Below are positions 30,382 through 61,251 of a stretch of DNA of 64,000 nt, in pieces. The notes beneath the pieces were generated by a model. It saw nothing but the letters and a program-made list of their open reading frames with translations. It ran no database searches and was not told the DNA's origin. Both the position numbers and the translations under genes were made by a program. Each line of letters starts with the position of its first letter. Positions within the stretch are counted from its first letter, which is position 1. Source of the DNA: Anaerolineae bacterium (GTDB taxonomy: Bacteria > Chloroflexota > Anaerolineae > Aggregatilineales > Phototrophicaceae). Where the stretch lies: NCBI GenBank assembly GCA_034437755.1, contig DAOTTV010000078.1, positions 1-64,000 on the forward strand, given 5' to 3'.

Positions 30382-32925
30382 ATGAGCTATCAAACGTCCA
30401 AATTTTACATAGCACTAATTTATACGGCTTTGCTCGGGCTGATCTTAGCCGGTTGCGGGGGCGGCGATAGCAGTGTCGCCGTCAACGATGAGCCAACTTC
30501 AGCGACACCGCGCAACCGCGATGCTCAGACGATTGTGCTTGTCTCAAGCGATACGTGGTGGGATGGTATCTACCTGCCGACGTATGTCACCAAGGCTATT
30601 CTCGAAGATGAGATGGGCTACACCGTCCAGATCGTCAACGGTGCATCCGTGCCCGAGTTCTTTGAACTGGTCGATTCAGGGCGGGCGGATGTGTTCATGA
30701 GTGGCTGGTTCCCGACGAACGACTTCACCTTCGAACAATATCCGAATCTGGTGCGCGTCGGGCAGGTCTACGGAGGGCGCGAACGCGATGCCTTTGAAGG
30801 CTGGATGGCGACCAACGACTTCGCCCGTCAATACGACATCGAGCGCATTGAAGATCTCTTCAAGCCGGATGTCGTCGCGGCACTCGACACGGATAACGAT
30901 GGCAAAGGCGAGTTGATCGGTTGTCCGCAGGCGTGGGCTTGTTCACAACGCCACACCGAGATCATGAAGGATTACGGCCTCGACTCGCTGTACGACATGG
31001 AACCGATCAGCGATGAAGAGACGATGCTCTCGTTGATCGACAGCCGCACGCAGGCGAATGACCCTGCTGTGTTCTATATGTATCAGCCCGTCGCCTACCC
31101 GCAGGAAGGCACGCTCGCTGATCGCGCGACATGGATCGAAGGCACGGAACCATACTTACCGCTGGCATTCAATCGCGGTGTGACACGCTCGGAATTCGTG
31201 GCATCACATCCCGATGTCGTCCACCTGATGAGCAACGTTCGCATCCCGGGGTCGGATATTGGCGCAGTGATGCGGCGCGTTAGCAATGACGGGCGGTCGC
31301 CGGCGATGCTCGATGATATTGCTACGCAGTGGATCGCGGACAATCGTGATCGCGTCAACGACTGGTTGCCGACAACCGAGTTCACGCCCGATGTGGCGAC
31401 AACGTATCCGCCCGCCCTGCCTGAGGATACGCTGACCATCGCCTACTCACCGGATAAAGAGAACCTGTTCTTAGAACTGGTGACGACATATAACCTGAAC
31501 CGCGACCCCGAAACCCCGCCAATTCATCCACTTCGGGTAGAGGTCGATGAGATGTTAGACGGCGCGACGGATGGCTGGTACGGGGCGATCTCGCCGGATT
31601 CATCGCTGTGGATCAGCCAGCTTGACCGCGCATGGCAGGACGAAAATCCCGGGGCGGCATCGCTAGTGAGCAATATCGAACGCTACGCGCTCAGTCCGGT
31701 GGTGATTGCCATGCTGGAATCACGCGCTGAGGCTGTCGGCTATCCTGAGACGGCGATTGGCTGGCGCGACTTGATGACCATCGCGCAGGAAGATAGTAGC
31801 TTCCGCTGGAGTCACCCATCGATCAGCTCAGCAACGGGCTTGCTCTCCTTGACTGCCGAGTTCTATTCAGCGACGGGCAAGCTCGAGAACTTGACCCGCG
31901 CCGACATCGAAGACGACGAGTCGATTGCTTATGTCGAAGAAATCGAGGCGACAGTCGATCGCTACGGTGCCGAGACCGAAGATCGCGTGATTGTGCGTAA
32001 TCTGGCGGCGGGCGGTCAACAACTAGATGCTTTCGTCACACAAGAGCAAAAAGTGATCTTCTTCAACCGCAACAGCCCAAGTACAGAACTGGTCGCGATC
32101 TATCCCGAAGAAGGTACGTTCTGGATGGATCATCCGCTGGCGTTGCTGGATGGCGATTGGGTGAGCGACGCTCAACGGCGCGTTTTCCGTGACTTTGCCA
32201 ACTTCGTCGCTGAACCAGCCCAACAAGATACTGTCCTCGAATGGGGCTATCGTCCGGCAGAACTGGCAACCGGCATCGACAGCGCCGAATCGCCGATTCG
32301 TCCGGAGTTCAACGTAGACCCCAATGAACCGACGACGCTGTTACAAGTACCATCGCCCGGCACGTTAGAAGCCATCCGCGAGGCGTGGCTCTTGACCAAG
32401 CGTCCGGCGGACATTGTGCTGGTGATCGATGTCAGTGGCAGTATGGAAGGTGACAAGCTCTCCGGCGTGAAGGGCGCGTTATTCTCGTTTATCGATCAAA
32501 TACAAGGTGACCGCGACCGCGTCGCCCTCGTGACTTTCTCGGACTCGTCGCGGTTGGTGCAACCACTCGCGCCGATGGACGAAGCGGCCTTCTCTAGCAG
32601 TGTGCGCCAGCTAGAAGCAGGAGGCGGCACGCAACTTTACGACGCAGTGACTTTCGCGCTCGATCATCTTGAGCAAGAGAGCGACGGCGAGCGGGCACAG
32701 GTGATTGTCGCCATGACCGACGGACAGAGCAACGGTCGCATTGATGTGCTAGAAAATGCCATCGACGATAACGAAGGACGGGCGATCATCTATGCAGTGG
32801 GCTATGGCGAAGATGCCGATCTGACGATCCTTCAGCGTATCGCCCAACTGGGTGAAGGGCGCGTCTATCCGTCTGATCCTGAGACAATCAGCCAATTGTA
32901 CGCGCTCCTGTCTGAATTTTTCTAA
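30382..32925 (+). CDS. Secreted lipoprotein with three domains: OpuAC-like glycine-betaine-binding domain, substrate-binding domain, and C-terminal vWA domain.
   Basis: Lipobox LAGCGG. The OpuAC-like region is QTIVLVSSDTWWDGIYLPTYV...GWFPTND. The middle domain matches gene 29176. The C-terminal vWA carries a MIDAS motif (VLVIDVSGSMEGDKL ... TQLYDAV ... VAMTDGQSN). Confidence 0.65.
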   Translation: MSYQTSKFYIALIYTALLGLILAGCGGGDSSVAVNDEPTSATPRNRDAQTIVLVSSDTWWDGIYLPTYVTKAILEDEMGYTVQIVNGASVPEFFELVDSGRADVFMSGWFPTNDFTFEQYPNLVRVGQVYGGRERDAFEGWMATNDFARQYDIERIEDLFKPDVVAALDTDNDGKGELIGCPQAWACSQRHTEIMKDYGLDSLYDMEPISDEETMLSLIDSRTQANDPAVFYMYQPVAYPQEGTLADRATWIEGTEPYLPLAFNRGVTRSEFVASHPDVVHLMSNVRIPGSDIGAVMRRVSNDGRSPAMLDDIATQWIADNRDRVNDWLPTTEFTPDVATTYPPALPEDTLTIAYSPDKENLFLELVTTYNLNRDPETPPIHPLRVEVDEMLDGATDGWYGAISPDSSLWISQLDRAWQDENPGAASLVSNIERYALSPVVIAMLESRAEAVGYPETAIGWRDLMTIAQEDSSFRWSHPSISSATGLLSLTAEFYSATGKLENLTRADIEDDESIAYVEEIEATVDRYGAETEDRVIVRNLAAGGQQLDAFVTQEQKVIFFNRNSPSTELVAIYPEEGTFWMDHPLALLDGDWVSDAQRRVFRDFANFVAEPAQQDTVLEWGYRPAELATGIDSAESPIRPEFNVDPNEPTTLLQVPSPGTLEAIREAWLLTKRPADIVLVIDVSGSMEGDKLSGVKGALFSFIDQIQGDRDRVALVTFSDSSRLVQPLAPMDEAAFSSSVRQLEAGGGTQLYDAVTFALDHLEQESDGERAQVIVAMTDGQSNGRIDVLENAIDDNEGRAIIYAVGYGEDADLTILQRIAQLGEGRVYPSDPETISQLYALLSEFF

Positions 32926-32954: not shown

Positions 32955-35162
32955 ATGTTTCGACAAATGATAACCCGAGTGGGGCACGTCTGGTGGGTGC
33001 TGATGGCAGTTGCGGTGGCAATCGCCGCCTGTGATAGTGTCCCTGCGCCGGATACCGACGATACAGCGACCGTTCCCGCAACCGCGACACCGATGCCCCT
33101 CTCCGGCGAGGCTGTGATTTACGTCGTCGCGCCCCTCTCCGGCGAGCGTGCCCAGCAAGGGCAAGCCCAGTCTGCTGGCGCACAGCTAGCGGCTTCGATC
33201 TTGAATGAACAGGGCGGCATCAACGGGCAAGAGATTGTGATTCGTATCATCAACGATCGCAACGATGCCGCATACGCGCGTCAGGTCGCCGATGAAATCG
33301 TGGCAGAAGCGGCAGGCGATAAGGTGGTAGGAGTCATCGTCTCGGAGAGTAGCGACCCGCAGTTACAAGCGGTGCGCGATACGTACCTGAGCGACCAGCT
33401 GGACTCGGCACCGCTGGTCGTCGTGCCAGTCTCGACGAATCCACTGGCGACTACGCTTGAGCATCCGCGCTTCTTCCGTTTGACCGCGCCGAGCATCACG
33501 CAGGCTTCAGAGATTGCCGCGGCGTTCAGCGAAGGTAACGTGAACGATGTCGTCACCCTGCAAAGCCCGACGGGCGAGTCACAGTTGCTAGCCGAGCGTT
33601 TTCAGACCACCGCGCGTGACTTCGACATCACCATCAGCGACACCTATGAACTCTCGCCCTTCGACACAAATTTTACCGAGATGGCGCTACAAATCTTCGA
33701 GCAAAATCCAACCGGATTATTCCTAGCGACCAACCCGTATGAGACCGGACAAATTCTCTCCGCGCTATACGCGATCAACTATCAGGGGAGCATCTACGCG
33801 GCAGACCAAGCCTTACCCTACGCGGTGGTCGATGAGCTGGGCTGTCAGGCAGAAGGCATCTTCCGGTCGTCGGTTGTACCCGTGCCACGCTTCGCCATGC
33901 CCCCCGCGCAACGTCAGCGCTACGCACAGGATACTGGACGCGAGCCGGAGCCGTTCTCGGTCGCTGGTTATGCCGCAGTGGAGTTCATCGCGCAGGCGTA
34001 CAATGCCAGCGAGGGCGACCCCACTGCCGCCGTCGAGTTCGCACACAATAACCCGGTGCCGACGCTGTTGGGCGACCTGACCTTCAGCGCGGATGGCGAG
34101 CGCGAAGGTGCAACGATGCACTTCCAGCAAGTGCAGGGGCGCATCTTTGAAGATGAGTTCCAGCGCGTGGTCGGTACGGTGCCGCAAGCCAGCGCGGAGA
34201 CTGGCACCAATAGGCAGACCTATCTCGATCGCACCTTCGCTGAGGATGCCGAGCCGATCATCTTCGCTGATTTGAACTGGAATAGCGCATTGTTCCACAA
34301 CGGAGTCGCCCGCTACATCATCGAAGCCGGCTATGACGTACCCACACGGGCAATCGCCGGCTCGACAGTGCCATCATTCCAACGGCTGACACGCGGCGAA
34401 GTCGATATCATCATGGAACGCTATAACTTCGACGATACGGTATCCGAAGCACTGGCAAGCGGTCAAATTGTCGATCTGGGTGTCAACTTTAGCGATGCTG
34501 TGCAGGGATGGTTCGTGCCGCGTTACGTGGTCGATGAGAATAATGCACGCGCGATCACGCCCGTCGCGCCCGATCTACAGCATATCGATCAGCTTGACCA
34601 GTATACCAACACATTCCGACTGAGCGATCAAAGCGGTATCGGGGCGTTCTACGGGGGTGTGCCGGGCTGGACAGCCCATAAGATCAACTGCTTGAAGCTG
34701 AAAGCCTACCAGCTAGACGATAACTACGCACAGGTCACCAGCGACTCCACCAGTGATCTGTTCGGATCATTGGCGACGGCTTACGACAACGGCGACCCGA
34801 TTCTGCTTTATCTCTGGGCACCGACATCGGTTTTCGGGCGGTATGATCTTGTCCAGCTAGAAGAACCAACCTATACCGATACATGCTGGGCGACTGATCG
34901 CGGGTGTGCCTATCCCACTGGTGATGTACGCATCCTCGCCAGCGGCGACTTGCCCCAGCGCGCCCCCGATGTCACTGAATTTCTGGAGACGATGGCGATG
35001 GACATCGACGATGTGAGTAATGTGCTGGTACGTATTGAAGACGAAAGCCTGACACCGGACGAAGCCGCGATTATCTGGTTGCGCGATAATCAGGATGTCT
35101 GGTCGCAGTGGGTCAGCGATGACGTGACCGAGCGCATCCGACAATCACTAGCCAATATGTAA
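32955..35162 (+). CDS. Secreted two-domain solute-binding protein: LivJ-like (Peripla_BP_6) N-terminal domain fused to an OpuAC-like C-terminal domain.
   Basis: Signal/anchor followed by IYVVAPLSGERAQQGQAQSAGAQLAASILNEQGGINGQEIVI (branched-chain amino acid SBP signature). The C-terminal half resembles glycine-betaine SBPs (IIFADLNWNSALFHNGVARYIIEAGYDV). Confidence 0.6.
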   Translation: MFRQMITRVGHVWWVLMAVAVAIAACDSVPAPDTDDTATVPATATPMPLSGEAVIYVVAPLSGERAQQGQAQSAGAQLAASILNEQGGINGQEIVIRIINDRNDAAYARQVADEIVAEAAGDKVVGVIVSESSDPQLQAVRDTYLSDQLDSAPLVVVPVSTNPLATTLEHPRFFRLTAPSITQASEIAAAFSEGNVNDVVTLQSPTGESQLLAERFQTTARDFDITISDTYELSPFDTNFTEMALQIFEQNPTGLFLATNPYETGQILSALYAINYQGSIYAADQALPYAVVDELGCQAEGIFRSSVVPVPRFAMPPAQRQRYAQDTGREPEPFSVAGYAAVEFIAQAYNASEGDPTAAVEFAHNNPVPTLLGDLTFSADGEREGATMHFQQVQGRIFEDEFQRVVGTVPQASAETGTNRQTYLDRTFAEDAEPIIFADLNWNSALFHNGVARYIIEAGYDVPTRAIAGSTVPSFQRLTRGEVDIIMERYNFDDTVSEALASGQIVDLGVNFSDAVQGWFVPRYVVDENNARAITPVAPDLQHIDQLDQYTNTFRLSDQSGIGAFYGGVPGWTAHKINCLKLKAYQLDDNYAQVTSDSTSDLFGSLATAYDNGDPILLYLWAPTSVFGRYDLVQLEEPTYTDTCWATDRGCAYPTGDVRILASGDLPQRAPDVTEFLETMAMDIDDVSNVLVRIEDESLTPDEAAIIWLRDNQDVWSQWVSDDVTERIRQSLANM

Positions 35163-40710: not shown

Positions 40711-41202
40711 ATGGCACAGCCCGACCAGCAGACTAATCCAATCCCAGCGACGACGACCATCGCCTCGCGCAAGCCGCGACGGTCGCGCCAGCTATCCAGC
40801 ACACAGGTGATGTTCGCGGTGATTCTCGCCATCGGCTTGATGATGGCGATTCAGTTCAGCAGTCGCATCAACGCTGAGCGTGATCTCGCCAATATCCGCG
40901 ATACGCTCAACCAAGAGATTGATCTGCTCCGCCGTGAAGAAGCTGAATTGACCGATCAATTGGACTACGTGGCTAGCGATGCCTACGTCGAAGAATGGGC
41001 ACGGGAAGAAGCGCGCATGATTCGCCCCGGCGAGACACTCATCATCCCGATTCCATCGACGACGACGCTTGCCGAGTTCGCGCAAGAGACAGTCGCGCCG
41101 CCGACCGCCTCGCTCGATACCACCCTGCCCGACCCTGCGCCGTGGCAAATGTGGTGGTATCTCTTCTTCGATGCCGCACCGCCAGCTCTTACTGCGAATT
41201 AG
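40711..41202 (+). CDS. FtsB/DivIC-like septum formation initiator.
   Basis: Single TM helix, a coiled coil (DLANIRDTLNQEIDLLRREEAEL) and the DYVASDAYVEEWAREEARMIRPGE motif typical of the FtsB/DivIC family. Confidence 0.6.
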   Translation: MAQPDQQTNPIPATTTIASRKPRRSRQLSSTQVMFAVILAIGLMMAIQFSSRINAERDLANIRDTLNQEIDLLRREEAELTDQLDYVASDAYVEEWAREEARMIRPGETLIIPIPSTTTLAEFAQETVAPPTASLDTTLPDPAPWQMWWYLFFDAAPPALTAN

Positions 41203-42400
41203 TAGGCGTATTCTGGTCGATTTGCGCTTGGGACAGTCGTCTGCGCGTCGCCGTCGAGATAATTTGTCCGTCTTCTGTGACGAGGACATAACTCGCATCA
41301 CTTTCTGGTGCAGGCGCAAAGAACGCCACGACTAGCATCACGAAGCCGATGATGAAAAACAAGATCGCGATGATGAACAAGATACCGGTGGACTCGTTCG
41401 TCGTCGTCACCAAAAAGTCCGATAATACGCGCGAGAAGAAGGCTTCGACTTCGTTTTCGGTATTCAGCAACTCGCCCAAGCCATTGAGCAAAATCAACTG
41501 TATCGAGAAGATGAGGATCAGCAATAGCACACCTGTGAGCAAGCTCGTACCGGCGAGCCACGATCCAAAGCCCTTGAGCGACCGCACCGCGAGGACAACA
41601 ATCAACGAGACGAGCGACAAGGGGCATAAGAACAGTAAAAGCAAGCCACTGCGGTCGATCTCGATCAGCAGATTGATGACCTCGACATCTTCGCGCTGAA
41701 TATCAAACACGCTGGAAACTGTCGCATCCTGTGTCGGTAGATCATCGGCGACGGTTTTCAACCATGTTTCGATCGCCTCAATGCTTTGATTACGTGAGAC
41801 GATGGTCGCGGGATTACAAATCGGAAGGGTGCCTGTGCCGCGTGCGATGAAGCGTCGCAGTTCGTCCTGTTGGGTGCGCGTACAATTCGGCGCATTGGTG
41901 ACGATCAAACGGGCGACATCACTCGCTTCTTCGCCTTGCCAGAGCCGCCGGATGTCATCAAAATCAACCGGTTCATCCAATACCGAAAAATTGCCGGAGA
42001 ATGTGCCTGTCAACACGCGGATCAGTTGTTCCGCACGCGCACGAAGCCAGTCAGGCGGTACAAGCGTCGTCACGACTTCGCGCCAGACATCCGGCGGCAA
42101 AGCCTCGGTGACCGCACGCAGGTCAATTGGTTGGGGGGATGCCACCGGACTGAAATCAGGCGGGGCGGGTGCGCCGGCGGATGGGTTATCGTCCAGTGTT
42201 TCGACATCCGCTTCTTCGAGGATAATCGGTAGCGCCACCGGCAAAAAATCCTCGAAGATTTGGTCGTTCTCAAGCAAGCGACGATAAGTATCCGGCTCTA
42301 GCAGAGTCGCTTCGATCGCTAGATTACACCCCGCCAGCATGAACAGCGGTGCGGCAATCAACGTCAAGAGCAATGCCGCCAGTCGTCCGATGGTACGCAT
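41189..42400 (-). CDS. Hypothetical membrane protein (N-terminal signal/lipobox-like, C-terminal multi-TM).
   Basis: MRTIGRLAALLLTLIAAPLFMLAGC.. then a ~250-aa soluble region and four hydrophobic helices. Overlaps the ftsB-like gene by 14 nt (convergent). Confidence 0.5.
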   Translation of the reverse strand: MRTIGRLAALLLTLIAAPLFMLAGCNLAIEATLLEPDTYRRLLENDQIFEDFLPVALPIILEEADVETLDDNPSAGAPAPPDFSPVASPQPIDLRAVTEALPPDVWREVVTTLVPPDWLRARAEQLIRVLTGTFSGNFSVLDEPVDFDDIRRLWQGEEASDVARLIVTNAPNCTRTQQDELRRFIARGTGTLPICNPATIVSRNQSIEAIETWLKTVADDLPTQDATVSSVFDIQREDVEVINLLIEIDRSGLLLLFLCPLSLVSLIVVLAVRSLKGFGSWLAGTSLLTGVLLLILIFSIQLILLNGLGELLNTENEVEAFFSRVLSDFLVTTTNESTGILFIIAILFFIIGFVMLVVAFFAPAPESDASYVLVTEDGQIISTATRRRLSQAQIDQNTPTNSQ

Positions 42401-52779: not shown

Positions 52780-53472
52780 ATGTATCCTGACGACCGTGTG
52801 CTTGTGGGTATCATCAACCGCAAGCGTGATCTTGATTACTTCCTCAAAGCACAGTGGTATCGCGTGCCACAACACCGCTTTCCACAGGGGATATTCACGG
52901 AATATGTTGCCATTTATCTGAGCGGTTATCCGGCGCGTAAACGGGGGCAAGGGGGCATCTGTTATTATGCGTCGCTAGCCGGTGTCGAGCTTGCATATCG
53001 TCGCGATCTCTTGCCGGAAGAAGCCGCACACCCGCGTGCCGATGACACCTACTATCAATTACAGGTGCGCGACATCGAAGGGCGCACGCCGCCGATCACG
53101 AACCCGACTAAACGCCCGATCAGCTTTATCTTCACGACGTGGGATCGCTTCACACAGGCGCAGACTATCGCGGATTTATACAGCACGGCGGATTACTTCG
53201 TCGATCGCATCTATCATGCCCTGCGGGATCGTCGGATTCGATCACAACGTTACTGGGATGCCCAACGCAAAGAGACCGGTTATGGCGCAGGATTTCGCAT
53301 CGTGTGCGAGCGTGGCGTGCTGAACGCGCACATCGGTGCGAGTAGCGATGATGACACAATTTTCAATCTCGATTTGGCGCACGACGAAGACGACATTCTG
53401 CGCGAGATCGAAACGCGCATCGCTAGCATGGGCGGTGTCGTGACTTTGCCCGTGCCCCCCAACGAGAGCTAG
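52780..53472 (+). CDS. Hypothetical protein (230 aa).
   Basis: Intact ORF with typical codon usage and no recognisable domain. Confidence 0.45.
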   Translation: MYPDDRVLVGIINRKRDLDYFLKAQWYRVPQHRFPQGIFTEYVAIYLSGYPARKRGQGGICYYASLAGVELAYRRDLLPEEAAHPRADDTYYQLQVRDIEGRTPPITNPTKRPISFIFTTWDRFTQAQTIADLYSTADYFVDRIYHALRDRRIRSQRYWDAQRKETGYGAGFRIVCERGVLNAHIGASSDDDTIFNLDLAHDEDDILREIETRIASMGGVVTLPVPPNES

Positions 53473-53536
53473 ATTAGCGGATATTCATCATCGGACAATA
53501 TGCGTCCGGTGCTGAATGCGCTATGATTGAGTTTAT

Positions 53537-53720
53537 GGGTCTTTCGTATTTTGCGTGGTCACGCTCTTTTTGTTCCCTTTTTGAAAAAAGGGAACGCCAA
53601 AAACTTTTGCTTTTTGAACGCTGTTCGTTCAAAATGAACAAGGTCAAGGAACTATCTTTCCTTATGGGAGTGCGGGGGCAAAGCCCCTGCCACAAAAACC
53701 ACGCGACATTCCAAAGAGCC
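53537..53720. mobile_element. MITE-like element family 2, copy 2 (184 bp), 41 bp upstream of the F420 gene cluster.
   Basis: TIRs GGGTCTTTCG...CCAAAGAGCC. Perfect 8-bp target-site duplication GAGTTTAT (53529-53536 and 53721-53728). Carries 46 bp not present in copy 1. Confidence 0.5.
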
Positions 53721-53761
53721 GAGTTTATTATTCAGAGTATGAGATGAGAAAGTGATAGATT

Positions 53762-54439
53762 GTGACGGAACAAGACGCACCGCTTATCAAATCCATTGCT
53801 GTACTCGGTGGTACAGGCAAAGAGGGATCAGCATTGGCGAAACGCTGGGCATTGCACGGTTACCGCGTAGTCATCGGCTCGCGTAATTTAGACAAAGCTC
53901 AACGGGCTGTCGAAGAGATGAACGCCGAGCTAGAAAGCGATTATCTCGTCGGCATGACTAACGAGGATGCCGCGCGCACAGCAGGCCTAGTCGTACTCAG
54001 CGTGCCCTATAGCGCCCATCGCGCCACGCTGGAGAGCGTCAAAGATCATCTCACGGGGAAAATATTGGTCGATGTCACTGTACCAATTATCCCACCGGAT
54101 GTCAGCACGGTGACGATCCCGGAGGGATCATCGGCGGCACAAGAAGCGCAAGCCTTGCTCGGTGATGATGTGCGGGTCGTCTCGGCATTCCAAAACGTGA
54201 GTTACGTCAAGCTGAAGCAGTTAGGCGCGCGCGTCGATTGTGATGTGCTGATTACAGGGGATGATGCCGACGCAAAAGAAGACGTGATCGAACTCGTCAA
54301 AGCGGCGGGTATGCGCGGTATCGACATCGGGCCATTAGCGAATGCTGTCGTTGCCGAAGCCCTGACACCAGCATTGCTCTACATCAACAAGAAGTATAAG
54401 GTTAAGGGTGCGGGGATTCGCATCACAGGGATTGAATGA
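53762..54439 (+). CDS. npdG: F420-dependent NADP(H) oxidoreductase (NpdG/Fno family).
   Basis: Rossmann fold IAVLGGTGKEGSALAKRWALHGYRVVIGSR and NpdG-like length of 225 aa. GTG start. Confidence 0.8.
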   Translation: MTEQDAPLIKSIAVLGGTGKEGSALAKRWALHGYRVVIGSRNLDKAQRAVEEMNAELESDYLVGMTNEDAARTAGLVVLSVPYSAHRATLESVKDHLTGKILVDVTVPIIPPDVSTVTIPEGSSAAQEAQALLGDDVRVVSAFQNVSYVKLKQLGARVDCDVLITGDDADAKEDVIELVKAAGMRGIDIGPLANAVVAEALTPALLYINKKYKVKGAGIRITGIE

Positions 54440-54440
54440 C

Positions 54441-55202
54441 GTGTATCCTTCGTTCAAGGCGATTGCCCTCCCCAACATTCCCATGATCCAGCGCGATGAT
54501 GATCTGCCACAGATCATCTTAACCGCAGTCGCAGACGCAGGATATGCTCTGCGGACAGATGACGTGCTAGTGATCTCGTCGAAAATCGTCAGCAAGGCTG
54601 AAGGACGCTGGGTACGGCTAGCGGATGTCGTCGCATCCGATGAGGCACAGGCATTAGCCCAACAGACGAAGAAAGACCCGCGCTTGGTCGAGCTGATCCT
54701 ACGCGAGAGCAATAGTATCTCGCGGCAACGGGTGGGCGTTGTGGTGACCGAGCATCGTCTCGGTTTCGTCTCGGCAAATTCAGGCATCGATCAATCGAAC
54801 GTCGATGACACGGGTGAGAATATCTTACTCTTACCACACGACCCCGATCAGACGGCACGCCACATCCGCACCGCGCTCCACACCGCGACTGATCAGCAGT
54901 GTGCGATCGTCATCAGCGACACACACGGACGACCGTTTCGATTAGGCAATATCGGCGTGGCGATCGGCGTGGCTGGTATGCAAGCCCTATGGGATCGGCG
55001 TGGCGAGCGCGATTTGTTCGGGCGCGAGATGGTCGCTACTGTACAGGGGTATGCGGATTTAGTCGCATCGACTGCCCATTTGATCTGTGGCGAAGGTGCA
55101 GAGGGCTATCCGGTGGTTTTGATACGCGGTCTGGATTTCCCGCAGGGGGATGGACGCGCCGCCGATCTCAACCGGTCGCCCGATGAAGACCTGTATCGCT
55201 GA
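54441..55202 (+). CDS. cofE: Coenzyme F420-0:L-glutamate ligase (CofE).
   Basis: CofE motifs (VLVISSKIVSKAEGR, GFVSANSGIDQSN, IVISDTHGRPFRLGNIGVAIG). GTG 2 nt after the npdG stop is chosen as start; the track ORF extends upstream to 54408 and overlaps npdG. Confidence 0.8.
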   Translation: MYPSFKAIALPNIPMIQRDDDLPQIILTAVADAGYALRTDDVLVISSKIVSKAEGRWVRLADVVASDEAQALAQQTKKDPRLVELILRESNSISRQRVGVVVTEHRLGFVSANSGIDQSNVDDTGENILLLPHDPDQTARHIRTALHTATDQQCAIVISDTHGRPFRLGNIGVAIGVAGMQALWDRRGERDLFGREMVATVQGYADLVASTAHLICGEGAEGYPVVLIRGLDFPQGDGRAADLNRSPDEDLYR

Positions 55203-55305
55203 GCAATACTAACAGAAATCCTATATCTCTGTGATATTATGTTTATGAGAATTATGGCAAGTATTATCTGACAATAAGCAATCGTTACAGATTAACAAAT
55301 TATTC

Positions 55306-55914
55306 ATGAATCAACGTCCCGTTTTATCGAGCATTTACACCCGTCGTTCTCTGCGGCGATATCAACAAGATCGACCTGTAGAGCGCGAGATCATCGAAGC
55401 CATTTTGACTGCGGGAACGTGGTCACCATCGGCGCACAATCGGCAACCGTGGCGCTTTGCTGTGTTACAAGCAGTCGCTAGCAAGCAAAAACTCGCGCGA
55501 GCAATGGGCGCACGCTTGCGTCATGACTTAGAAGCGGATGCTGTGCCGGAAGAAGTCATCGCGAAGGACGTGAATCGTTCTTACGATCGCCTGACATCCG
55601 CGCCGATCTTGGTTGTGCTGTGTCTGTCGATGGTCGATATGGATACTTACAGCGACGATACGCGCAATCACAACGAGTACATCATGGCTATTCAAAGCAC
55701 GGCGATGGCTGGTCAAAATATATTGCTGGCGGCACACGCGCACAAATTAGGGGCATGTTGGATGTGTGCGCCGCTCTTCTGTCCGGATGTCGTGCGCGAC
55801 GTGCTCGACCTGCCCGACGATTGGCAAGCACAGGGTATCATCACCATGGGCTATCCGGCACAAGAGCGCGATAGAACACGCGAACCATTAGAAACGAGGG
55901 TGCTTTGGCGTTAA
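55306..55914 (+). CDS. Nitroreductase-family flavoprotein, a stand-alone homolog of the FbiB C-terminal domain (candidate dehydro-F420-0 reductase).
   Basis: RRSLRRY...SPSAHNRQPWRF nitroreductase signature; the gene sits between cofE and cofD. Confidence 0.7.
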   Translation: MNQRPVLSSIYTRRSLRRYQQDRPVEREIIEAILTAGTWSPSAHNRQPWRFAVLQAVASKQKLARAMGARLRHDLEADAVPEEVIAKDVNRSYDRLTSAPILVVLCLSMVDMDTYSDDTRNHNEYIMAIQSTAMAGQNILLAAHAHKLGACWMCAPLFCPDVVRDVLDLPDDWQAQGIITMGYPAQERDRTREPLETRVLWR

Positions 55915-56855
55915 GAGATCAAAATGTTGTCGTCCTCGTGGGCGGGGTTGGTGGCGCGAAGCTGGCGCTGGGTTTACAGATGATTGTACCGCCCGAAAAT
56001 TTGACGATCATCGTCAACACTGGCGATGACTTCTGGCATTATGGCTTACGCATCTGCCCGGATGTGGATACAGTTCTGTATACCCTATCGGGGCGGGTGA
56101 ACCAAACATTTGGCTGGGGCGTGGCAGGCGACACAACAACAACGCTCGACACATTGCGCGCTTTCGGTGAGGATACGTGGTTCAAATTAGGCGATAAAGA
56201 CATCGCGACGCATCTCTTACGGACGCACATGCTCCGACAGGGCGAACGCCTGACGAACATCATCGCCCATCTGGCAGATGCGATGGACATCGCGCCGACA
56301 GTGTTGCCGATGACCGACATCGAAGTGGCAACGATTGTCGATACCGAAGAATACGGCGAATTGGAATTCCAGACCTATTTCGTAAGGCATCGCTGGCAAC
56401 CGACTGTCAAAGGTATTAGATACGACGGAAGCGAGACCGCGATTATGACGGATGAGGTGCAGGCGGCTTTGCAAAATGCCGACATGATTCTTCTCGGCCC
56501 ATCGAACCCGTGGCTGTCGATTGCACCGATTTTATCGATACCGGACATGCGCGCTACCCTAACCGCGCGGTCGATTCCACGGGTGGCAGTCACGCCGATT
56601 GTGGATGGTGATGCGATCAAAGGGCCGGCGGCAAAACTGATGCGTGAACTCGGTTACGAGGTATCAGCGACCGCTGTCGCGCAATACTATGGCGATGTCC
56701 TGACGGGCTTCGTCTACGATCAACGCGATACCAAGTTTCAATCTCATGGTTTGGATAGCGTTGGGTTTGATACAATAATGACAACAGATGAGGATAAATC
56801 GGCACTTGCCCGCAATATCCTCAATTGGATACTAACGAAGAGGGAGGCTATATGA
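55905..56855 (+). CDS. cofD: 2-phospho-L-lactate (or enolpyruvyl) transferase CofD/FbiA.
   Basis: VVLVGGVGGAKLALGL..IVNTGDD..GPSNPWLSI motifs. Confidence 0.85.
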   Translation: MALRDQNVVVLVGGVGGAKLALGLQMIVPPENLTIIVNTGDDFWHYGLRICPDVDTVLYTLSGRVNQTFGWGVAGDTTTTLDTLRAFGEDTWFKLGDKDIATHLLRTHMLRQGERLTNIIAHLADAMDIAPTVLPMTDIEVATIVDTEEYGELEFQTYFVRHRWQPTVKGIRYDGSETAIMTDEVQAALQNADMILLGPSNPWLSIAPILSIPDMRATLTARSIPRVAVTPIVDGDAIKGPAAKLMRELGYEVSATAVAQYYGDVLTGFVYDQRDTKFQSHGLDSVGFDTIMTTDEDKSALARNILNWILTKREAI

Positions 56856-57499
56856 GCTTATGGGTGATTTTACCAGTTAAACCGCTCAATCGTGCTAAAA
56901 GTCGTCTGGCAGATATTCTGTCACCAGAACAGCGGTATGATTTTGCACTGGCGATGTTCCAGAACATTTTGCGTATCACACAGCAAGCCTCGCAGATTAC
57001 CGGAACCTTGGTCATCAGTCGTGATACAAAAGTACTCGCTTTAGCGCGTGAAGCAGGCGCGAAAACCGTCCAGGAAAGCAACCGAAGTGATCTCAACCCG
57101 GCGTTGACCCGTGCGACAGAAGTGGTCAAGGCGTGGGGTGGGGATGCTGTACTTATACTACCAGCTGATTTGCCCTTTATAACAACAGACGATATTGAAA
57201 ATATTATTGAGATGGGAACTGAGACCCCGTCAGTTGTCTTGGCAACGGATCGCGTTCAGGATGGGACAAACGCGCTCCTTGTGCGTCCGGCGGGGTTGAT
57301 CGACTATAACTATGGCGAAGGTAGTTTCACCCGTCACTTACAAGCCGCCCAGCGTGCCGGAGCCAATGTGCAATACTATATGTCCGATAGCGTGACACTC
57401 GACATCGACACCCCTGCTGATCTGAAATTGTACAATCGCTGGCTCAAGCTGGAGCAACACCTTCTGCCGCCATTTTTACCAGATAATTTAACAGCATAA
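56852..57499 (+). CDS. cofC: CofC/FbiD guanylyltransferase.
   Basis: MSLWVILPVKPLNRAKSRL..; MobA-like NTP-transferase fold. ATGA overlap with the cofD stop. Confidence 0.8.
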   Translation: MSLWVILPVKPLNRAKSRLADILSPEQRYDFALAMFQNILRITQQASQITGTLVISRDTKVLALAREAGAKTVQESNRSDLNPALTRATEVVKAWGGDAVLILPADLPFITTDDIENIIEMGTETPSVVLATDRVQDGTNALLVRPAGLIDYNYGEGSFTRHLQAAQRAGANVQYYMSDSVTLDIDTPADLKLYNRWLKLEQHLLPPFLPDNLTA

Positions 57500-57529
57500 C
57501 GCTGATAGCCATAGCACATAAACACAAGA

Positions 57530-57562
57530 ACGGGGACACCTTATCTGTCCCCGTTTTGATTT
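57530..57562 (+). terminator. Intrinsic terminator after cofC.
   Basis: Perfect 9-bp stem ACGGGGACA/TGTCCCCGT with loop CCTTATC, then TTTGATTT. Confidence 0.5.
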
Positions 57563-57581
57563 GGGGAGAGCAGATAAGATC

Positions 57582-58589
57582 ATGTCCGATCGAGTAGGCT
57601 TATACTTGCAGGATGACTTCACGCTGGCGGATTCGATTGATTTCGTCAAGTATGCAGAGGCGCGCGGTTTCGAGAGCGTCTGGCAATCCGAGACGCGCCT
57701 CGTGCGCGATTGCATCGTGCCGATGGCGGCTTATGCGACCGTTACCTCGCGCATTCGCATTGGTGCCGGCGTGATGAATATCTGGACGCGCAACGTGGCG
57801 ACGATGGCAGCGGAACTAGTGACGCTCGATGACATCGCGCGTGATCGTATCATCTGCGGGCTAGGCACGTGGTACGACCCGCTCGCGGCGCAGGTCGGCG
57901 TGACGCGGCGCAAGCACCTGTTCGCCATGCGCGAAGTGTTGACAACCCTCAAACGTCTCATGCAGTTCGAGCGCGTGACGTATCGTGGCGAGTTCGTCCA
58001 TCTCGATGACGTGCATCTCGACATCGTGACCGGACGGCGACAAGCGCGCCGCATCCCGTTTTATATCGGCGCGACCGGCGCAAAGACGCTGGCACTCGCG
58101 GGGGAAATCGCCGATGGCGTGCTGTTGAATTATCTCGTATCGCCCCATTACAACGAGATGGCGATCGCCCAGATCGAAATCGGCGCGAAGCAAGCCGACC
58201 GCCTCTTACATCACATCGACCGCCCGCAATTGATCGTCTGCTCTGTCAGTGTTAATCGTGATGATGCGCTGAACACCGCCCGTCGTCTCGTGGCACAGTA
58301 CATCGTGCAACAACCCCAGCTGATGCGCGCCAACGGCATGCCGCAGGGCTTGATTGACGAACTGGCGCAAGTTTTACCGCCGACAGCCTCATTAGAACGC
58401 ATCGAACAGGCGATGACGCTAGTGCCTGATGATGTCGTACAGATGGTCACAGCGTCCGGCACGCCCGATGAAGTCAAAGCTAAAGTGCGCCAGTATGTCG
58501 CTTCTGGCACGACGATGCCGGTGCTATATCCGCTCGGGCGTGATGTGCGTTTGCTGATTGATACGTTCGCAAATGGCTATTCAAGCTGA
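57582..58589 (+). CDS. Luciferase-like monooxygenase (LLM) class F420-dependent oxidoreductase.
   Basis: TIM-barrel LLM motifs (FESVWQSET, IGAGVMNIW). Start at MSDRVG with a GGGGAGAG RBS. Confidence 0.8.
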   Translation: MSDRVGLYLQDDFTLADSIDFVKYAEARGFESVWQSETRLVRDCIVPMAAYATVTSRIRIGAGVMNIWTRNVATMAAELVTLDDIARDRIICGLGTWYDPLAAQVGVTRRKHLFAMREVLTTLKRLMQFERVTYRGEFVHLDDVHLDIVTGRRQARRIPFYIGATGAKTLALAGEIADGVLLNYLVSPHYNEMAIAQIEIGAKQADRLLHHIDRPQLIVCSVSVNRDDALNTARRLVAQYIVQQPQLMRANGMPQGLIDELAQVLPPTASLERIEQAMTLVPDDVVQMVTASGTPDEVKAKVRQYVASGTTMPVLYPLGRDVRLLIDTFANGYSS

Positions 58590-58616
58590 TTGATACGTTC
58601 GCAAATGGCTATTCAA
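58553..58616. repeat. Perfect 32-bp tandem duplication (two copies) spanning the stop codon of the LLM gene.
   Basis: GCTGATTGATACGTTCGCAAATGGCTATTCAA repeated head-to-tail at 58553-58584 and 58585-58616. Confidence 0.7.
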
Positions 58617-58692
58617 AATGAACGAGGGGCTTGATATAGTCAGCACATGCAGTTTTATGAGATAACACGCATATTATCAGCGACGAGGCACG

Positions 58693-61251
58693 ATGTTCCG
58701 AGCAAATTGGCGCTACGACAAGCGTATCATCTTGGCCGGCTTTGCGGGGATCAGTGTCCTGATCTTACTCGCGTTCTTCAGTGTTGCTTACATCGGCGCG
58801 GAGGGTCGCCTGTTGATGCCGCTGGACGATGTGTACATTCATTTTCAGTATGCCCGCCAGCTCGCCAGCGGGCAAGCATACGTCTATAATCCGGGGCAAG
58901 CGCCCACCTCCGGCGCGACGAGCTTTCTCTATCCCTATGTGCTGGCGGCAGGTTACGTGATCGGCTTTCGTGGTTTATGGCTGGGCTTGTGGGCCATGCT
59001 CATCGGCGCACTTGCCCTATTCGCCGCCCTGATCGCGGTTTACCGCCTGTGCCAAGCCATGAAAGCCCCGCAGTGGCTGGCACTCCTGACGACGATCACA
59101 TTTGCACTCAGCGGCTCGATTGCATGGCATTTCATGTCTGGTATGGAAACGGGCGTGATGATCGCGCTCTCGCTCTGGACGTTGCTCTTCGTCGTCGAGA
59201 AGCGGTTGATGCCTTTCGTCGTCGTCGCCACGTTACTCACACTCACCCGCCCTGAAGGCGGACTGATGGCAGGGGTTGCATCAGTCACCTTGCTCTTGCG
59301 CTTGTGGGGAACAGCCCGCACCGACACGCAACAGATGCGCCCTCGCTGGCAGTGGCTCGCCCTCGCCCTGCCAATCCTCGCGCTCGGCATACAACCGATT
59401 GTGAACGGGCTGATCACTGGCTCAACAGTTGCGACGGGCAATCAAGCCAAGTCGATCCTCGCCACAGTGCCGCCGGATTGGGGCGTGATTATCACGCGCA
59501 TTCGCGATAATTACGTCCGTATGTGGCGCGAGTGGTTGACCGGCACCGCCCCCGCCGAAGGCTTGTATCTACCGCCCCTGCTGAGCAGTATCGCGTGGGT
59601 GACGGCGCTGGGCTTACTCTTCAAGCGGGGGTGGCGGCTCATCGGGCTGATGTTGATTGGCTGGTGGGTGGGCATCGCTGGCGCGATCGCCACGCTGGAC
59701 ACCGCATTCTGGCACTTCAAGCGCTATCAGATGCCCTTGATGGCGCTCTTTGTGCCGGTGGCGGCGTGGGGCTTGACGTGGCTCTGGCAAGGGATGCACA
59801 AGCGTAAGCCGACACGATCGATGTTGCTTGTGCGCTACGGGATATACGGGTATGCGGGCGTGCTGATGCCGATCATCGCGGGGGCATTGCTCGTGCAATA
59901 TCTCGGTTATTATCACCTGAACGTGACGTATGTCTATCAGCAACCGTACCAGATGGCGCAGTGGATACAGGACAACACGCCTACTGATGCAGTGATTGCC
60001 GTACACGATGTCGGCTTGATGCGCTATACCGGCGGGCGCACGACACTTGATATGGTCGGGCTGACGACCCCGACAGCGGCGGCGTATTGGCGCAACGGCC
60101 CCGGTAGCGTGGCGGAATACCTGATGGCTGAACAGCCGGATTACATCGCGAGTTATGGTTACGGTCACGGCTACGGACTCGCCTATCTGGCTGACACGGC
60201 GCTATATGGTCAAGCTCTTGCAGAATTTCACATTGATGATTGGCAGAGAGCGTCTAACGTAGCCCTCGCCGCCGATACACAGGGCATCTATGCGCCGGAT
60301 TGGGATCAGATTTTATTCAACGGACTGGCGAATGACCGTGAGCGGACGGTGCAAGCGGATTTGACCTCACCCTATGCTAACAATCCTGATAACGCGCCGT
60401 TGTTCACGCTCGATGTCGGCAACATTGCTAGCGAACACGCCGGCGCGTATGAGTGGCACGCGACCTATGACGGGCAATCGGTTTTCATCTCAGAAGTGCG
60501 CGATTTTCAGGATGGTGATGCTGGCGTTATCGATAGCTATCGCCTGATTGACGCATACGAACAGTTCACCGTTCGCGTTTCTGCGCCGCCGCCTGACGAT
60601 GCACTCGTGTTGATCACGCGCTTGCACGCCTCAGCGCGTGGCACACTCGACATTTATGCTGATGGCGAGCCAATCGACACGCAATGGATTCCGGAGATGC
60701 CCGGCACATGGGTCACAATCAGCACCCGCATCCCGACAATACACCTGCATAACGGTGCTGTGACAGTGCGTATCGTGCCGCAAATCGCAGACGGGTATTA
60801 TATGCCAGCCCAGCACGTCATACGCCTGCAAGATAAGCCGCAGTGTTGCCAGCAAACGCGCACCCATTATCAAGACAACACGGTTCGTCTGACGGATTAC
60901 AGAGTGCAGACGATCGACGGGCGTTTACACGTCCAGACGACATGGCAGGCAAGTGGCGACAACTACGGCGATTACCGTGCCTTTTTGCATCTCTACGACG
61001 ACCGCGACCAGCCACCGATCGCCCAGTGGGACGGGTATATTGGTGGTATGCCGATTGGTAATTGGATAGAGGGGTCGTTTACAGGTACAATGATAATCGA
61101 CCTAACAACCGTACCCGGTGGCACATATCCGATGGCAATTGGCTTCTACAATCCGACTGATCCAACTGACCGACTTATCGCGACGAGTGACGCACTGGAC
61201 GTAAGCGCCGATGGTCGGCTGTGGATGACAAACGTTAGGATACTGGACTGA
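58693..61251 (+). CDS. Large polytopic membrane protein, a putative GT-C fold glycosyltransferase with a C-terminal extracytoplasmic domain.
   Basis: At least 12 predicted TM helices in the first ~430 aa, with a DD/DExY-like motif in the first loop (PLDDVYIHFQYA) as in ArnT/PMT-type GT-C enzymes. A ~400-aa soluble C-terminal domain follows. Confidence 0.5.
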   Translation: MFRANWRYDKRIILAGFAGISVLILLAFFSVAYIGAEGRLLMPLDDVYIHFQYARQLASGQAYVYNPGQAPTSGATSFLYPYVLAAGYVIGFRGLWLGLWAMLIGALALFAALIAVYRLCQAMKAPQWLALLTTITFALSGSIAWHFMSGMETGVMIALSLWTLLFVVEKRLMPFVVVATLLTLTRPEGGLMAGVASVTLLLRLWGTARTDTQQMRPRWQWLALALPILALGIQPIVNGLITGSTVATGNQAKSILATVPPDWGVIITRIRDNYVRMWREWLTGTAPAEGLYLPPLLSSIAWVTALGLLFKRGWRLIGLMLIGWWVGIAGAIATLDTAFWHFKRYQMPLMALFVPVAAWGLTWLWQGMHKRKPTRSMLLVRYGIYGYAGVLMPIIAGALLVQYLGYYHLNVTYVYQQPYQMAQWIQDNTPTDAVIAVHDVGLMRYTGGRTTLDMVGLTTPTAAAYWRNGPGSVAEYLMAEQPDYIASYGYGHGYGLAYLADTALYGQALAEFHIDDWQRASNVALAADTQGIYAPDWDQILFNGLANDRERTVQADLTSPYANNPDNAPLFTLDVGNIASEHAGAYEWHATYDGQSVFISEVRDFQDGDAGVIDSYRLIDAYEQFTVRVSAPPPDDALVLITRLHASARGTLDIYADGEPIDTQWIPEMPGTWVTISTRIPTIHLHNGAVTVRIVPQIADGYYMPAQHVIRLQDKPQCCQQTRTHYQDNTVRLTDYRVQTIDGRLHVQTTWQASGDNYGDYRAFLHLYDDRDQPPIAQWDGYIGGMPIGNWIEGSFTGTMIIDLTTVPGGTYPMAIGFYNPTDPTDRLIATSDALDVSADGRLWMTNVRILD

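Follow-up and report, generated by a model that had tools for sequence, protein, structure and literature searches.

A predicted coenzyme F420 operon with a putative stand-alone dehydro-F420-0 reductase in an uncultured Anaerolineae bacterium

Positions 53762 to 58589 of the 64,000-nt stretch of DNA analysed here (the window), from an uncultured Anaerolineae (Chloroflexota) bacterium of a microbial-mat metagenome, very probably hold a coenzyme F420 tail-assembly operon that works by the phosphoenolpyruvate (PEP)/dehydro-F420-0 route, with a separate nitroreductase-fold protein (NTR) as the FbiE orthologue. We put the probability of this reading at about 0.8. Six ORFs, all on the plus strand, lie in the order npdG/Fno, cofE, NTR, cofD, cofC and, after a hairpin, an LLM gene. 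This is the order given by the first-pass annotation, and curated Pfam and NCBIfam models, read as bit scores against the model cut-offs, name the genes. The features are as follows.

53762..54439, plus strand: npdG/Fno, NADPH-dependent F420 reductase, 225 aa (TIGR01915 equivalog, 201.6 bits, cut-off 149.8; PF03807)
54408..55202, plus strand: cofE, stand-alone F420-0:gamma-glutamyl ligase, 264 aa (TIGR01916, 260.5 bits, cut-off 180.65; PF01996, 250.6 bits)
55203..55305, plus strand: AT-rich spacer of 103 nt between cofE and the NTR gene (sequence inspection)
55306..55914, plus strand: stand-alone FbiB-C-like nitroreductase-fold flavoprotein (NTR), 202 aa, predicted FbiE (PF00881, 120.6 bits; TIGR03553, 147.1 bits, cut-off 249.55)
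55905..56855, plus strand: cofD/fbiA-type transferase, 316 aa (TIGR01819, 324.3 bits, cut-off 257.45)
56852..57499, plus strand: cofC/fbiD-type guanylyltransferase, 215 aa (TIGR03552, 168.6 bits, cut-off 105)
57528..57556, strand not assigned: terminator-like hairpin, 11 bp, GC-rich, with a U-rich stretch after it (dG -23.1 kcal/mol, z = -2.89)
57582..58589, plus strand: Mer-like F420-type LLM/LLHT oxidoreductase, 335 aa (PF00296, 195.7 bits; best NCBIfam matches are F420-type LLM families)

The genes are tightly packed. The first of them, npdG, overlaps cofE with its 3′ end. The cofE start was placed at GTG 54408, and an alternative TTG at 54432 would give a protein of 256 aa. A second CofE model, NF009809, scores 266.6 bits, slightly under its cut-off of 274, and the window CofE carries no C-terminal NTR domain. 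The spacer that separates cofE from the NTR gene is long compared with the median of about 20 nt in relatives, and it has no Rfam match. Further downstream, there is a 10-nt overlap between the NTR stop and the TTG start of cofD, at a junction with a GAGGG Shine-Dalgarno-like motif. The cofC start, ATG 56852 (the mechanical ORF begins at TTG 56825), forms an ATGA overlap with the cofD stop, and GAGGGAGG lies just ahead of it.

The best NCBIfam match of the NTR is TIGR03553, the FbiB C-terminal domain (FbiB-C), which leads all other families by a wide margin. The score of 147.1 bits is below the equivalog-domain cut-off of 249.55. However, the name of the model and the co-hit PRK13294 indicate that it describes a domain within fused FbiB proteins, so that the shortfall weakens strict equivalog membership but not functional analogy. 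Other assignments were rejected: NfsA/NfsB (NF008033, 34.9 bits against 223; NF008275, 35.5 against 227), BluB (TIGR02476, 70.8 bits against 150) and RutE-type proteins all fall far under their cut-offs, these models spanning 35–71 bits. The closest PDB sequence is 4XOM, FbiB-C of Mycobacterium tuberculosis (Mtb), at 4e-27, with the runner-up at 9e-18. An AF2 model of the NTR (pLDDT 97.3) was compared with solved structures using Foldseek. The top 11 matches were all FbiB-C chains, with TM scores of 0.88–0.91, and the FMN- and F420-bound FbiB-C structures 4XOO and 4XOQ gave 0.87–0.91; NfsA, NfsB and BluB reached 0.6–0.77, against 0.9 for FbiB-C. Pairwise comparison gave E-values of 6e-51 for the NTR of the Thermomicrobium roseum cluster (WP_012643075, 45.5% identity), 1e-29 to 1e-37 for FbiB-C, about 1e-21 for generic NTRs and 1e-5 to 1e-7 for NfsA/NfsB, a ranking that is consistent with membership in the FbiE/FbiB-C group. 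Thus the nitroreductase is FbiB-C-like, as first proposed, by profile, PDB sequence and fold, and a grouping with generic NfsA/NfsB was not found. In databases such proteins are labelled only ‘nitroreductase family protein’ by NCBI, and some are wrongly called glutamate ligase by JGI.

The dehydro-F420-0 pocket of Mtb FbiB includes P289, R337 and M372 (Bashiri 2019). In our alignment two of these three residues are kept in the NTR, R91 corresponding to R337 and M127 to M372, while A43 replaces P289. Close relatives show no exception to this Arg and Met, whether clustered (63/63) or unclustered (16/16; 79/79 in all). The T. roseum NTR has P/G/M at the same positions, with Gly in place of R337, compared with A/R/M here; the triad is therefore no strict signature, and the pocket varies among presumed reductases. 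Bootstrapped neighbour-joining trees against FbiB C-domains, the phylogeny that had been suggested at the outset, gave support only to shallow clades of Anaerolineae and, at 99%, to the clade of actinobacterial FbiB-C. All their deep nodes were under 50%, which leaves the monophyly of the NTR with FbiB-C and T. roseum FbiE without tree support.

The arrangement of the genes is conserved. Among 80 related species-level genomes, cofE-NTR-cofD-cofC is collinear in 56 and the NTR gene lies immediately 5′ of cofD in 62. In 95% of 56 loci the stop codon of the NTR gene either overlaps the start of cofD or lies directly against it. The npdG-cofE overlap was present in all 53 related loci measured, and the LLM gene is kept 3′ of cofC in 51. 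Within Anaerolineae, npdG always opens the operon and overlaps cofE, and after cofC there is nearly always a Mer-like LLM gene. Close homologues of the NTR are also fused to its neighbours: to CofE (P0125, P0148 and P0236), to CofC (P0126) and to CofD (P0136, which three independent assemblies show in identical form and with cofC next). Operon position, translational coupling and the fusions to CofE, CofD and CofC all support a discrete dehydro-F420-0 reductase. From these features and the similarity of the NTR we infer, in agreement with the first-pass annotation, a PEP/dehydro-F420 route with the reductase as a separate polypeptide.

The NTR subfamily is not solely operon-linked, since closer homologues occur outside cof clusters: those on plasmids of Paraburkholderia (56%) and Variovorax (49%) do not adjoin cof genes, and 17 Chloroflexota homologues (54–65% identity) are also found away from them. 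These non-cof contexts, together with the score under the curated FbiB-C cut-off and the deep tree nodes below 50%, would suit a different flavoprotein, either a non-redox helper on which CofE depends to add glutamate or a syntenic bystander with general nitro/quinone/flavin reductase activity. A helper role would also recall the FbiB C-domain, which is needed to extend the poly-glutamate tail (Bashiri 2019). We consider such a protein very unlikely, given the scores of the NfsA, NfsB, BluB and RutE-type models, the pocket Arg and Met invariant across the NTR clade, and the fusions to CofD and CofC besides CofE, unexpected if the protein did no more than help CofE. Moreover, the accounts in PMC8764529 and PMC8498797 report reductase activity for the protein of T. 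roseum, with which the NTR shares 45% identity.

The substrate of the pathway was approached through CofC. Use of 3-phosphoglycerate (3-PG) by the CofC of Mycetohabitans (Paraburkholderia) rhizoxinica, Mrhiz-CofC, is conferred by M91, C95, H145 and S162 (Hasan 2022, PMC8764529). The window CofC has L81, L85, D137 and G155 at these positions; at the 3-PG-diagnostic ones it carries L81 and G155 instead of Met and Ser, and the Gly that takes the place of the diagnostic Ser is that of 2-phospho-L-lactate (2-PL)/PEP enzymes. These residues indicate a 2-PL/PEP-type enzyme and argue against the 3-PG type. The best solved relative of the window CofC by sequence is nonetheless the 3-PG guanylyltransferase 7P97 (1.7e-22, compared with 2.3e-12 for Mtb FbiD), which would fit a cluster that makes 3PG-F420 as in M. 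rhizoxinica, where no reduction is needed and the NTR would be unrelated to biosynthesis. With all four residues replaced, and with a conserved, coupled NTR left without a role, this is extremely unlikely.

The CofC sequence alone cannot discriminate PEP from 2-PL. According to Hasan et al. 2022 (PMC8764529), CofC assays fail to separate the two and it is CofD that selects the intermediate, so that CofC specificity, on which the first-pass annotation would have let the route stand or fall, is a weaker criterion than assumed. The pathway might then normally run on 2-PL, with the NTR repairing or proof-reading occasional PEP-derived dehydro-F420 in a non-obligatory step. Nearly all CofC enzymes tested in vitro prefer 2-PL and accept 3.5–30% PEP, the saturated forms exceed dehydro-F420 in stability (Hasan 2022, PMC8764529), and the window CofC has generic 2-PL/PEP-type residues. 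However, an enzyme forming 2-PL is neither known nor seen in the operon, and comparative genomics has never found a lactate kinase (Bashiri 2019). Thermomicrobia, which have a homologous stand-alone NTR, were concluded to use the dehydro-F420 (DF420) route (Hasan 2022, PMC8764529). The tight translational coupling of NTR and cofD and the CofD and CofE fusions also suit a stoichiometric step better than occasional repair, which we regard as unlikely.

In the PEP route that we favour, CofC and GTP would activate PEP to EPPG, and CofD would move the enolpyruvyl phosphate onto FO, supplied from another part of the genome, with dehydro-F420-0 as the product. The NTR, acting as FbiE with reduced FMN, would hydrogenate dehydro-F420-0 at its terminal methylene to form F420-0, to which the stand-alone CofE would append the gamma-glutamyl tail. 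Fno, the product of the presumably co-transcribed npdG, would reduce F420 with NADPH, and the Mer-like LLM protein downstream would be an F420 user. What the analysis shows is the identity of the genes, their layout, the resemblance of the NTR in family, fold and pocket, and the conservation of the arrangement; homology and context are what suggest that the NTR is catalytic, that the physiological substrate is PEP, and where the reduced FMN comes from. The FMN of FbiB-C was recharged in vitro by E. coli Fre with NADH (Bashiri 2019). A self-priming loop is an improbable variant: Fno would make F420H2 with NADPH, and this F420H2 would in turn recharge the flavin with which FbiE saturates new dehydro-F420-0. 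Mature cofactor would then act as a catalyst in its own maturation, with Fno taking part in biosynthesis and not only in the use of F420.

The first-pass annotation placed a terminator after cofC. The hairpin and its U-rich stretch are indeed there; its role as a terminator and its orientation are plausible and no firmer than that, because a consensus terminator scan picked it up only on the minus strand, and terminator-like sites are in total no more numerous across the region than shuffled sequence would lead one to expect. The LLM gene that follows starts at ATG 57582 (mechanical ORF from TTG 57561). Its product reaches 166 bits with NF002619 and 152.5 bits with TIGR03555, its best NCBIfam matches, and, being under both cut-offs (276 and 348.7), is not a bona fide Mer. 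Its solved relatives, Mer (the closest, 1e-31), Fgd and fHMAD, are all F420-dependent. The protein is thus predicted to be an F420-type LLM enzyme and not the F420-dependent methylene-H4MPT reductase Mer. As for FO synthase, the CxxxCxxC radical-SAM motif occurred in 0 of 56 window ORFs of at least 90 aa, and neither Pfam sweeps of the other large window ORFs nor precomputed Pfam calls for 45.3–64 kb yielded CofG, CofH or FbiC. The lack of cofG/cofH in the window had been seen before; it also makes the accompanying description of a self-contained supply-and-use module an overstatement.

The idea of a stand-alone dehydro-F420 reductase is not new, having been published in 2020–2021 (Braga et al. 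2020; PMC8498797), and the present finding is of modest importance, leaving the understanding of the pathway unchanged. What it would add is that FbiE, and hence the PEP-based route to F420, can be predicted beyond Thermomicrobia, where it has been studied by experiment, for Anaerolineae, a large class that is mostly uncultured. In this class the operon npdG-cofE-fbiE-cofD-cofC(-LLM) is conserved and shows translational coupling, which should aid annotation, and its compact five-gene cassettes are candidates for heterologous F420 production.

The closest known system is that of T. roseum, whose stand-alone NTR is reported as a dehydro-F420-0 reductase (Braga et al. 2020, AEM 86:e00457-20, as described in PMC8764529 and PMC8498797) and was named FbiE in a 2021 review (Grinter & Greening, PMC8498797). 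In both organisms a separate NTR-fold polypeptide of about 200 aa shares one cluster with cofD and cofC (CofD 48% and CofC 32% identical), and the same route from PEP through EPPG and DF420-0 to F420-0 is predicted. The lineages differ, T. roseum belonging to Thermomicrobia (NCBI phylum Thermomicrobiota) and the window to Anaerolineae within Chloroflexota. So does the gene order: npdG-cofE-NTR-cofD-cofC with NTR overlapping cofD in the window, but cofD-cofC-DMT transporter-NTR in T. roseum, where cofE and npdG are not adjacent; the window has no homologue of that transporter. NfsA, NfsB and BluB share with the NTR the fold of the superfamily, as well as the FMN-binding motifs R-x-x-R ... PSxxNxQPW near the N-terminus, while E. 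coli NfsA/NfsB show only short local similarity to it (27–29% over about 60 residues). In Mtb FbiB (Rv3262; 4XOM/4XOO/4XOQ; Bashiri 2016, 2019) the C-domain is fused to CofE, whereas the window NTR is separate, 103 nt 3′ of cofE, and only 31–39% identical to actinobacterial FbiB-C. The chemistry proposed for FbiB-C, hydride transfer from FMNH2 to the enolpyruvyl methylene (Bashiri 2019), is the one that the window NTR would share.

The six open reading frames called in the first-pass annotation were recovered, all on the + strand and with the same coordinates. Names for npdG, cofE, cofD and cofC come from curated NCBIfam equivalog models, all scoring above cut-off.

Genes of the F420 operon and the adjoining oxidoreductase gene, in order
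npdG/Fno: TIGR01915, 201.6 bits (cut-off 149.8); Pfam agrees
cofE: TIGR01916, 260.5 bits (cut-off 180.65); Pfam agrees
55306-55914 (+): NTR, a 202-aa nitroreductase-fold protein between cofE and cofD; PF00881, 120.6 bits
cofD: TIGR01819, 324.3 bits (cut-off 257.45); Pfam agrees
cofC: TIGR03552, 168.6 bits (cut-off 105); Pfam agrees
57582-58589 (+): LLM, a Mer-like, F420-type luciferase-like oxidoreductase directly downstream of cofC

npdG overlaps cofE, and the TTG start of cofD (55905), with a GAGGG motif ahead of it, overlaps the NTR stop codon (55912-55914). At the next junction, the cofC ATG (56852) and the cofD stop share an ATGA, with GAGGGAGG ahead of it. The gene junctions fit a single transcription unit from npdG through cofC. 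The cofE-NTR spacer (55203-55305) is 103 nt long and strikingly AT-rich in a window of 54% GC; its median length in relatives is about 20 nt. Rfam finds no match in it, and ahead of the NTR ATG no Shine-Dalgarno sequence is obvious. A terminator had been placed after cofC, where an 11-bp GC-rich hairpin followed by a U-rich stretch is indeed found (57528-57556; ΔG -23.1 kcal/mol, z = -2.9). However, this hairpin was flagged on the minus strand in a consensus terminator scan, and the region is not enriched in terminator-like sites relative to shuffles, so that its role as a terminator is only loosely supported. A permissive Rfam search of 53000-59000 for a riboswitch or other leader returned a single, spurious match (SmY, E 0.097), and in 53 loci, k-mer comparison of the 260 nt ahead of npdG revealed nothing in common with the window.

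In three independent comparisons, the nearest match of NTR is the C-terminal domain of actinobacterial FbiB (FbiB-C). Among curated HMMs, TIGR03553 (FbiB_CTERM) ranks first at 147 bits, a score below the cut-off of that model, and the full-length FbiB model ranks second; BluB reaches 71 bits and the NfsA, NfsB and YdjA-type models 33-35 bits. Among solved sequences, FbiB-C of M. tuberculosis (4XOM) is the best match (4e-27), the second-best being 9e-18. Finally, in a Foldseek search with the AlphaFold2 model of NTR (pLDDT 97.3), the top 11 hits are all FbiB-C chains (TM 0.88-0.91, rmsd about 2 Å), with generic nitroreductases behind (TM 0.80 at most). The first-pass annotation took clustering of NTR with NfsA/NfsB as grounds for refutation; with 33-35 bits for those models against 147 for FbiB_CTERM, NTR does not group with them. 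The curated scores rule out BluB, NfsA, NfsB, RutE-type and Acg identities.

In FbiB-C, residues P289, R337 and M372 form the dehydro-F420-0 pocket, where the enolpyruvyl group is held over FMNH2 (Bashiri et al. 2019). In our alignment these positions correspond to A43, R91 and M127 of NTR. The Arg and Met are invariant in operon-linked (63/63) and unlinked (16/16) close relatives; one pocket residue of NTR is unlike that of M. tuberculosis, and in the same alignment the T. roseum protein differs at another. Neighbour-joining trees with bootstrap (195 and 31 taxa) did not recover a supported sisterhood of NTR and FbiB-C. Since all deep nodes had less than 50% support, we base no claim of sisterhood on them.

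The gene arrangement is widely conserved. The exact NTR protein and the whole gene string also occur on microbial-mat metagenome contigs (ENA ERR2407577) and in the NCBI MAG GCA_964509265.1. In the nearest species-level genomes, almost all of them Anaerolineae, Aggregatilineales or Phototrophicaceae MAGs (Chloroflexota), NTR identity is 54-73%. An exhaustive search of representatives with a threshold of E 1e-30 yielded 109 clusters, most of them of proteins some 200 aa in length. NTR was also used as query to retrieve 80 species-representative loci, and in 56 of these cofE-NTR-cofD-cofC is collinear, in most cases flanked by npdG upstream and LLM downstream. NTR lies directly upstream of cofD in 62/80 (median distance about -13 nt; 95% of loci with no more than 30 nt), and npdG overlaps cofE in all 53 loci compared. 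LLM directly follows cofC in 51 related loci, with a median gap of 34 nt. The best NCBIfam matches of the window LLM are all of F420 type; Mer-like models rank first, though the protein stays below their cut-off (166 vs 276 bits), whereas FMN-type families score 33 bits at most. Its solved relatives are likewise all F420 enzymes, Mer (1e-31) being followed by Fgd and fHMAD.

Anaerolineae-type NTRs (60-66% identity) were also encountered in MAGs labelled Gammaproteobacteria, Pleurocapsa (Cyanobacteria) or Zixiibacteriota. Full npdG-cofE-NTR-cofD-cofC is present in loci L011, L017 and L058, NTR-cofD-cofC in L060 and NTR alone in L068; contaminated bins or wrong labels are the likeliest explanation. 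Two further genes flank the operon:

52780-53472 (+): 230-aa ORF, no family match
58693-61251 (+): 852-aa predicted multi-pass membrane protein, no Pfam family; its sole match, to LA_3751/3752 glycosyltransferase-like proteins, is weak

Synteny of both with the F420 operon extends to many Anaerolineae genomes, the former lying upstream and the latter, with xdhC, downstream.

Several of the closest NTR homologues are fusion proteins.

Fusions of close NTR homologues
CofE-NTR: P0125, P0148, P0236
NTR-CofD: P0136, 535 aa (L093 5001-6608; also L094, L095)
CofC-NTR: P0126, based on a single 1.9-kb contig
PNPOx-like-NTR: P0129 (343 aa), P0166 (370 aa), with an N-terminal split-barrel domain (PF01243)

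The NTR-CofD fusion is real, as it is identical in three independent assemblies and followed by cofC; a Sua5/YciO/YrdC-family gene lies 5′. We found no mention of this type of natural fusion in the cited literature. That homologues are fused to three different enzymes of a single pathway is strong evidence for a function of this subfamily in F420 tail assembly. The PNPOx-like split barrel is the fold of F420-dependent FDOR enzymes, and P0129 and P0166 could be fusions of an FDOR with FbiE, the stand-alone dehydro-F420-0 reductase named from Thermomicrobia.

Members of the subfamily also occur outside cof operons. Stand-alone NTRs nearer to the window protein than T. roseum FbiE are found on plasmids of Paraburkholderia sp. 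PGU19 (NZ_AP023183.1; L086 5929-6603; 56% identity) and Variovorax sp. PBL-E5 (NZ_LR594673.1; L087 5890-6585; 49%), with no adjoining cof genes. One is surrounded by genes for FAD-binding proteins and acetyl-CoA hydrolase, the other by those for an IclR regulator and a FAD oxidoreductase; an LLM gene and npdG lie about 5 kb from NTR in Variovorax. Either the F420 genes of these strains lie elsewhere in the genome, or some members of the FbiE-like subfamily are not biosynthetic. A lone NTR (54-65% identical) is also present in 17 Chloroflexota genomes (Ardenticatenaceae, Promineifilaceae and similar):

Lone-NTR loci (NTR at about 6001-6600 in most)
L013, L038, L039, L046, L047, L053-L055, L059
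L063, L064, L067, L068, L071, L074, L076, L080

Diverged cof genes were sought within 4.5 kb in these 17 loci and none was found, the neighbours being housekeeping genes. Two contexts recur: a GntR/FadR-like regulator with CBS-domain proteins and 2-oxoacid:ferredoxin oxidoreductase, and RNase J with a PP2C phosphatase. Given this distribution, the sub-cut-off score, the pocket and the limits of the trees, the functional call for the window NTR rests on context together with similarity, not on similarity alone. A non-reductase or otherwise unrelated role for the operon-borne protein is quite improbable.

In CofC of Mycetohabitans, M91, C95, H145 and S162 constitute the 3-phosphoglycerate switch (Hasan et al. 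2022, PMC8764529). The window CofC carries L81, L85, D137 and G155 at these positions and, judged from these residues, is of the 2-PL/PEP type. Production of 3PG-F420 by the cluster was considered, 7P97 being the best solved relative of the window CofC, but the diagnostic residues speak against it and this very remote reading was rejected. CofC assays cannot separate 2-PL from PEP, and CofD selects the intermediate (Hasan et al. 2022, PMC8764529); 2-PL specificity of CofC, the second refuting condition of the first-pass annotation, is therefore not decidable from sequence. The main argument for the PEP/dehydro-F420 route is the conserved, coupled reductase. A 2-PL pathway in which NTR repairs dehydro-F420 arising as a side product appears unlikely. 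We favour, with a probability of about 0.8, the PEP route with an FbiE-like NTR as reductase and with Fno and LLM acting on the mature cofactor. CofC would convert PEP to EPPG, which CofD would join to FO made elsewhere, giving dehydro-F420-0. NTR, with FMNH2, would reduce this to F420-0, and CofE would extend the latter to F420-n, to be reduced by Fno and used by LLM. It is also conceivable, if doubtful, that the FbiE flavin is re-reduced by F420H2 derived from Fno, so that the cofactor would prime its own maturation; such a loop would account for npdG being invariably first in the operon and overlapping cofE.

The absence of FO synthase from the window, stated in the first-pass annotation, was confirmed: the CxxxCxxC motif occurs in 0/56 ORFs of at least 90 aa, and this radical-SAM screen and Pfam sweeps were negative for cofG, cofH and fbiC. 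The sweeps assigned the remaining large ORFs to housekeeping functions (ATP synthase, MreB, Rex, MacB-type exporter, trigger factor, ClpPX, GlgB, DinB, BipA, FolD, GcvT and others). Other ORFs observed in the window were:

17955-19349 (+): 464 aa, no Pfam family at E 1e-5 or better
27413-28933 (-): 506 aa, Major Vault Protein shoulder and SPFH/Band-7 domains, weak Vault repeat match; looks like a bacterial MVP-like protein
30382-32925 (+): very large fused solute-binding protein, OpuAC, SBP_bac_11 and C-terminal VWA domain
32955-35162 (+): very large fused solute-binding protein, Peripla_BP_6 and OpuAC
41189-42400 (-): 403 aa, no Pfam family at E 1e-5 or better

The multi-domain architectures of the two solute-binding proteins are unusual.

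The proposal of a stand-alone reductase is correct in substance, and the concept is already established. FbiB-C was demonstrated to be an FMNH2-dependent dehydro-F420-0 reductase, and a separate enzyme, 'CofX', was predicted for organisms with a single-domain CofE (Bashiri et al. 2019). Stand-alone NTR enzymes of Thermomicrobia have dehydro-F420-0 reductase activity (Braga et al. 2020, as cited in PMC8764529 and PMC8498797), and the name FbiE was given in a 2021 review (PMC8498797). Many of the Anaerolineae proteins already bear the JGI label 'F420 biosynthesis protein FbiB-like protein'. On the T. roseum megaplasmid, the stand-alone NTR (WP_012643075) belongs to a cofD-cofC-DMT-NTR cluster, and identity to the window proteins is 45.5% for NTR, 48% for CofD and 32% for CofC. 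The lineage differs from this characterised example, Anaerolineae being another class and, under NCBI taxonomy, another phylum. Specific to the present system is the gene order, in which NTR separates cofE from cofD and overlaps the latter, as is the conservation across the class of an operon of five to six genes with npdG and a Mer-like LLM among them.
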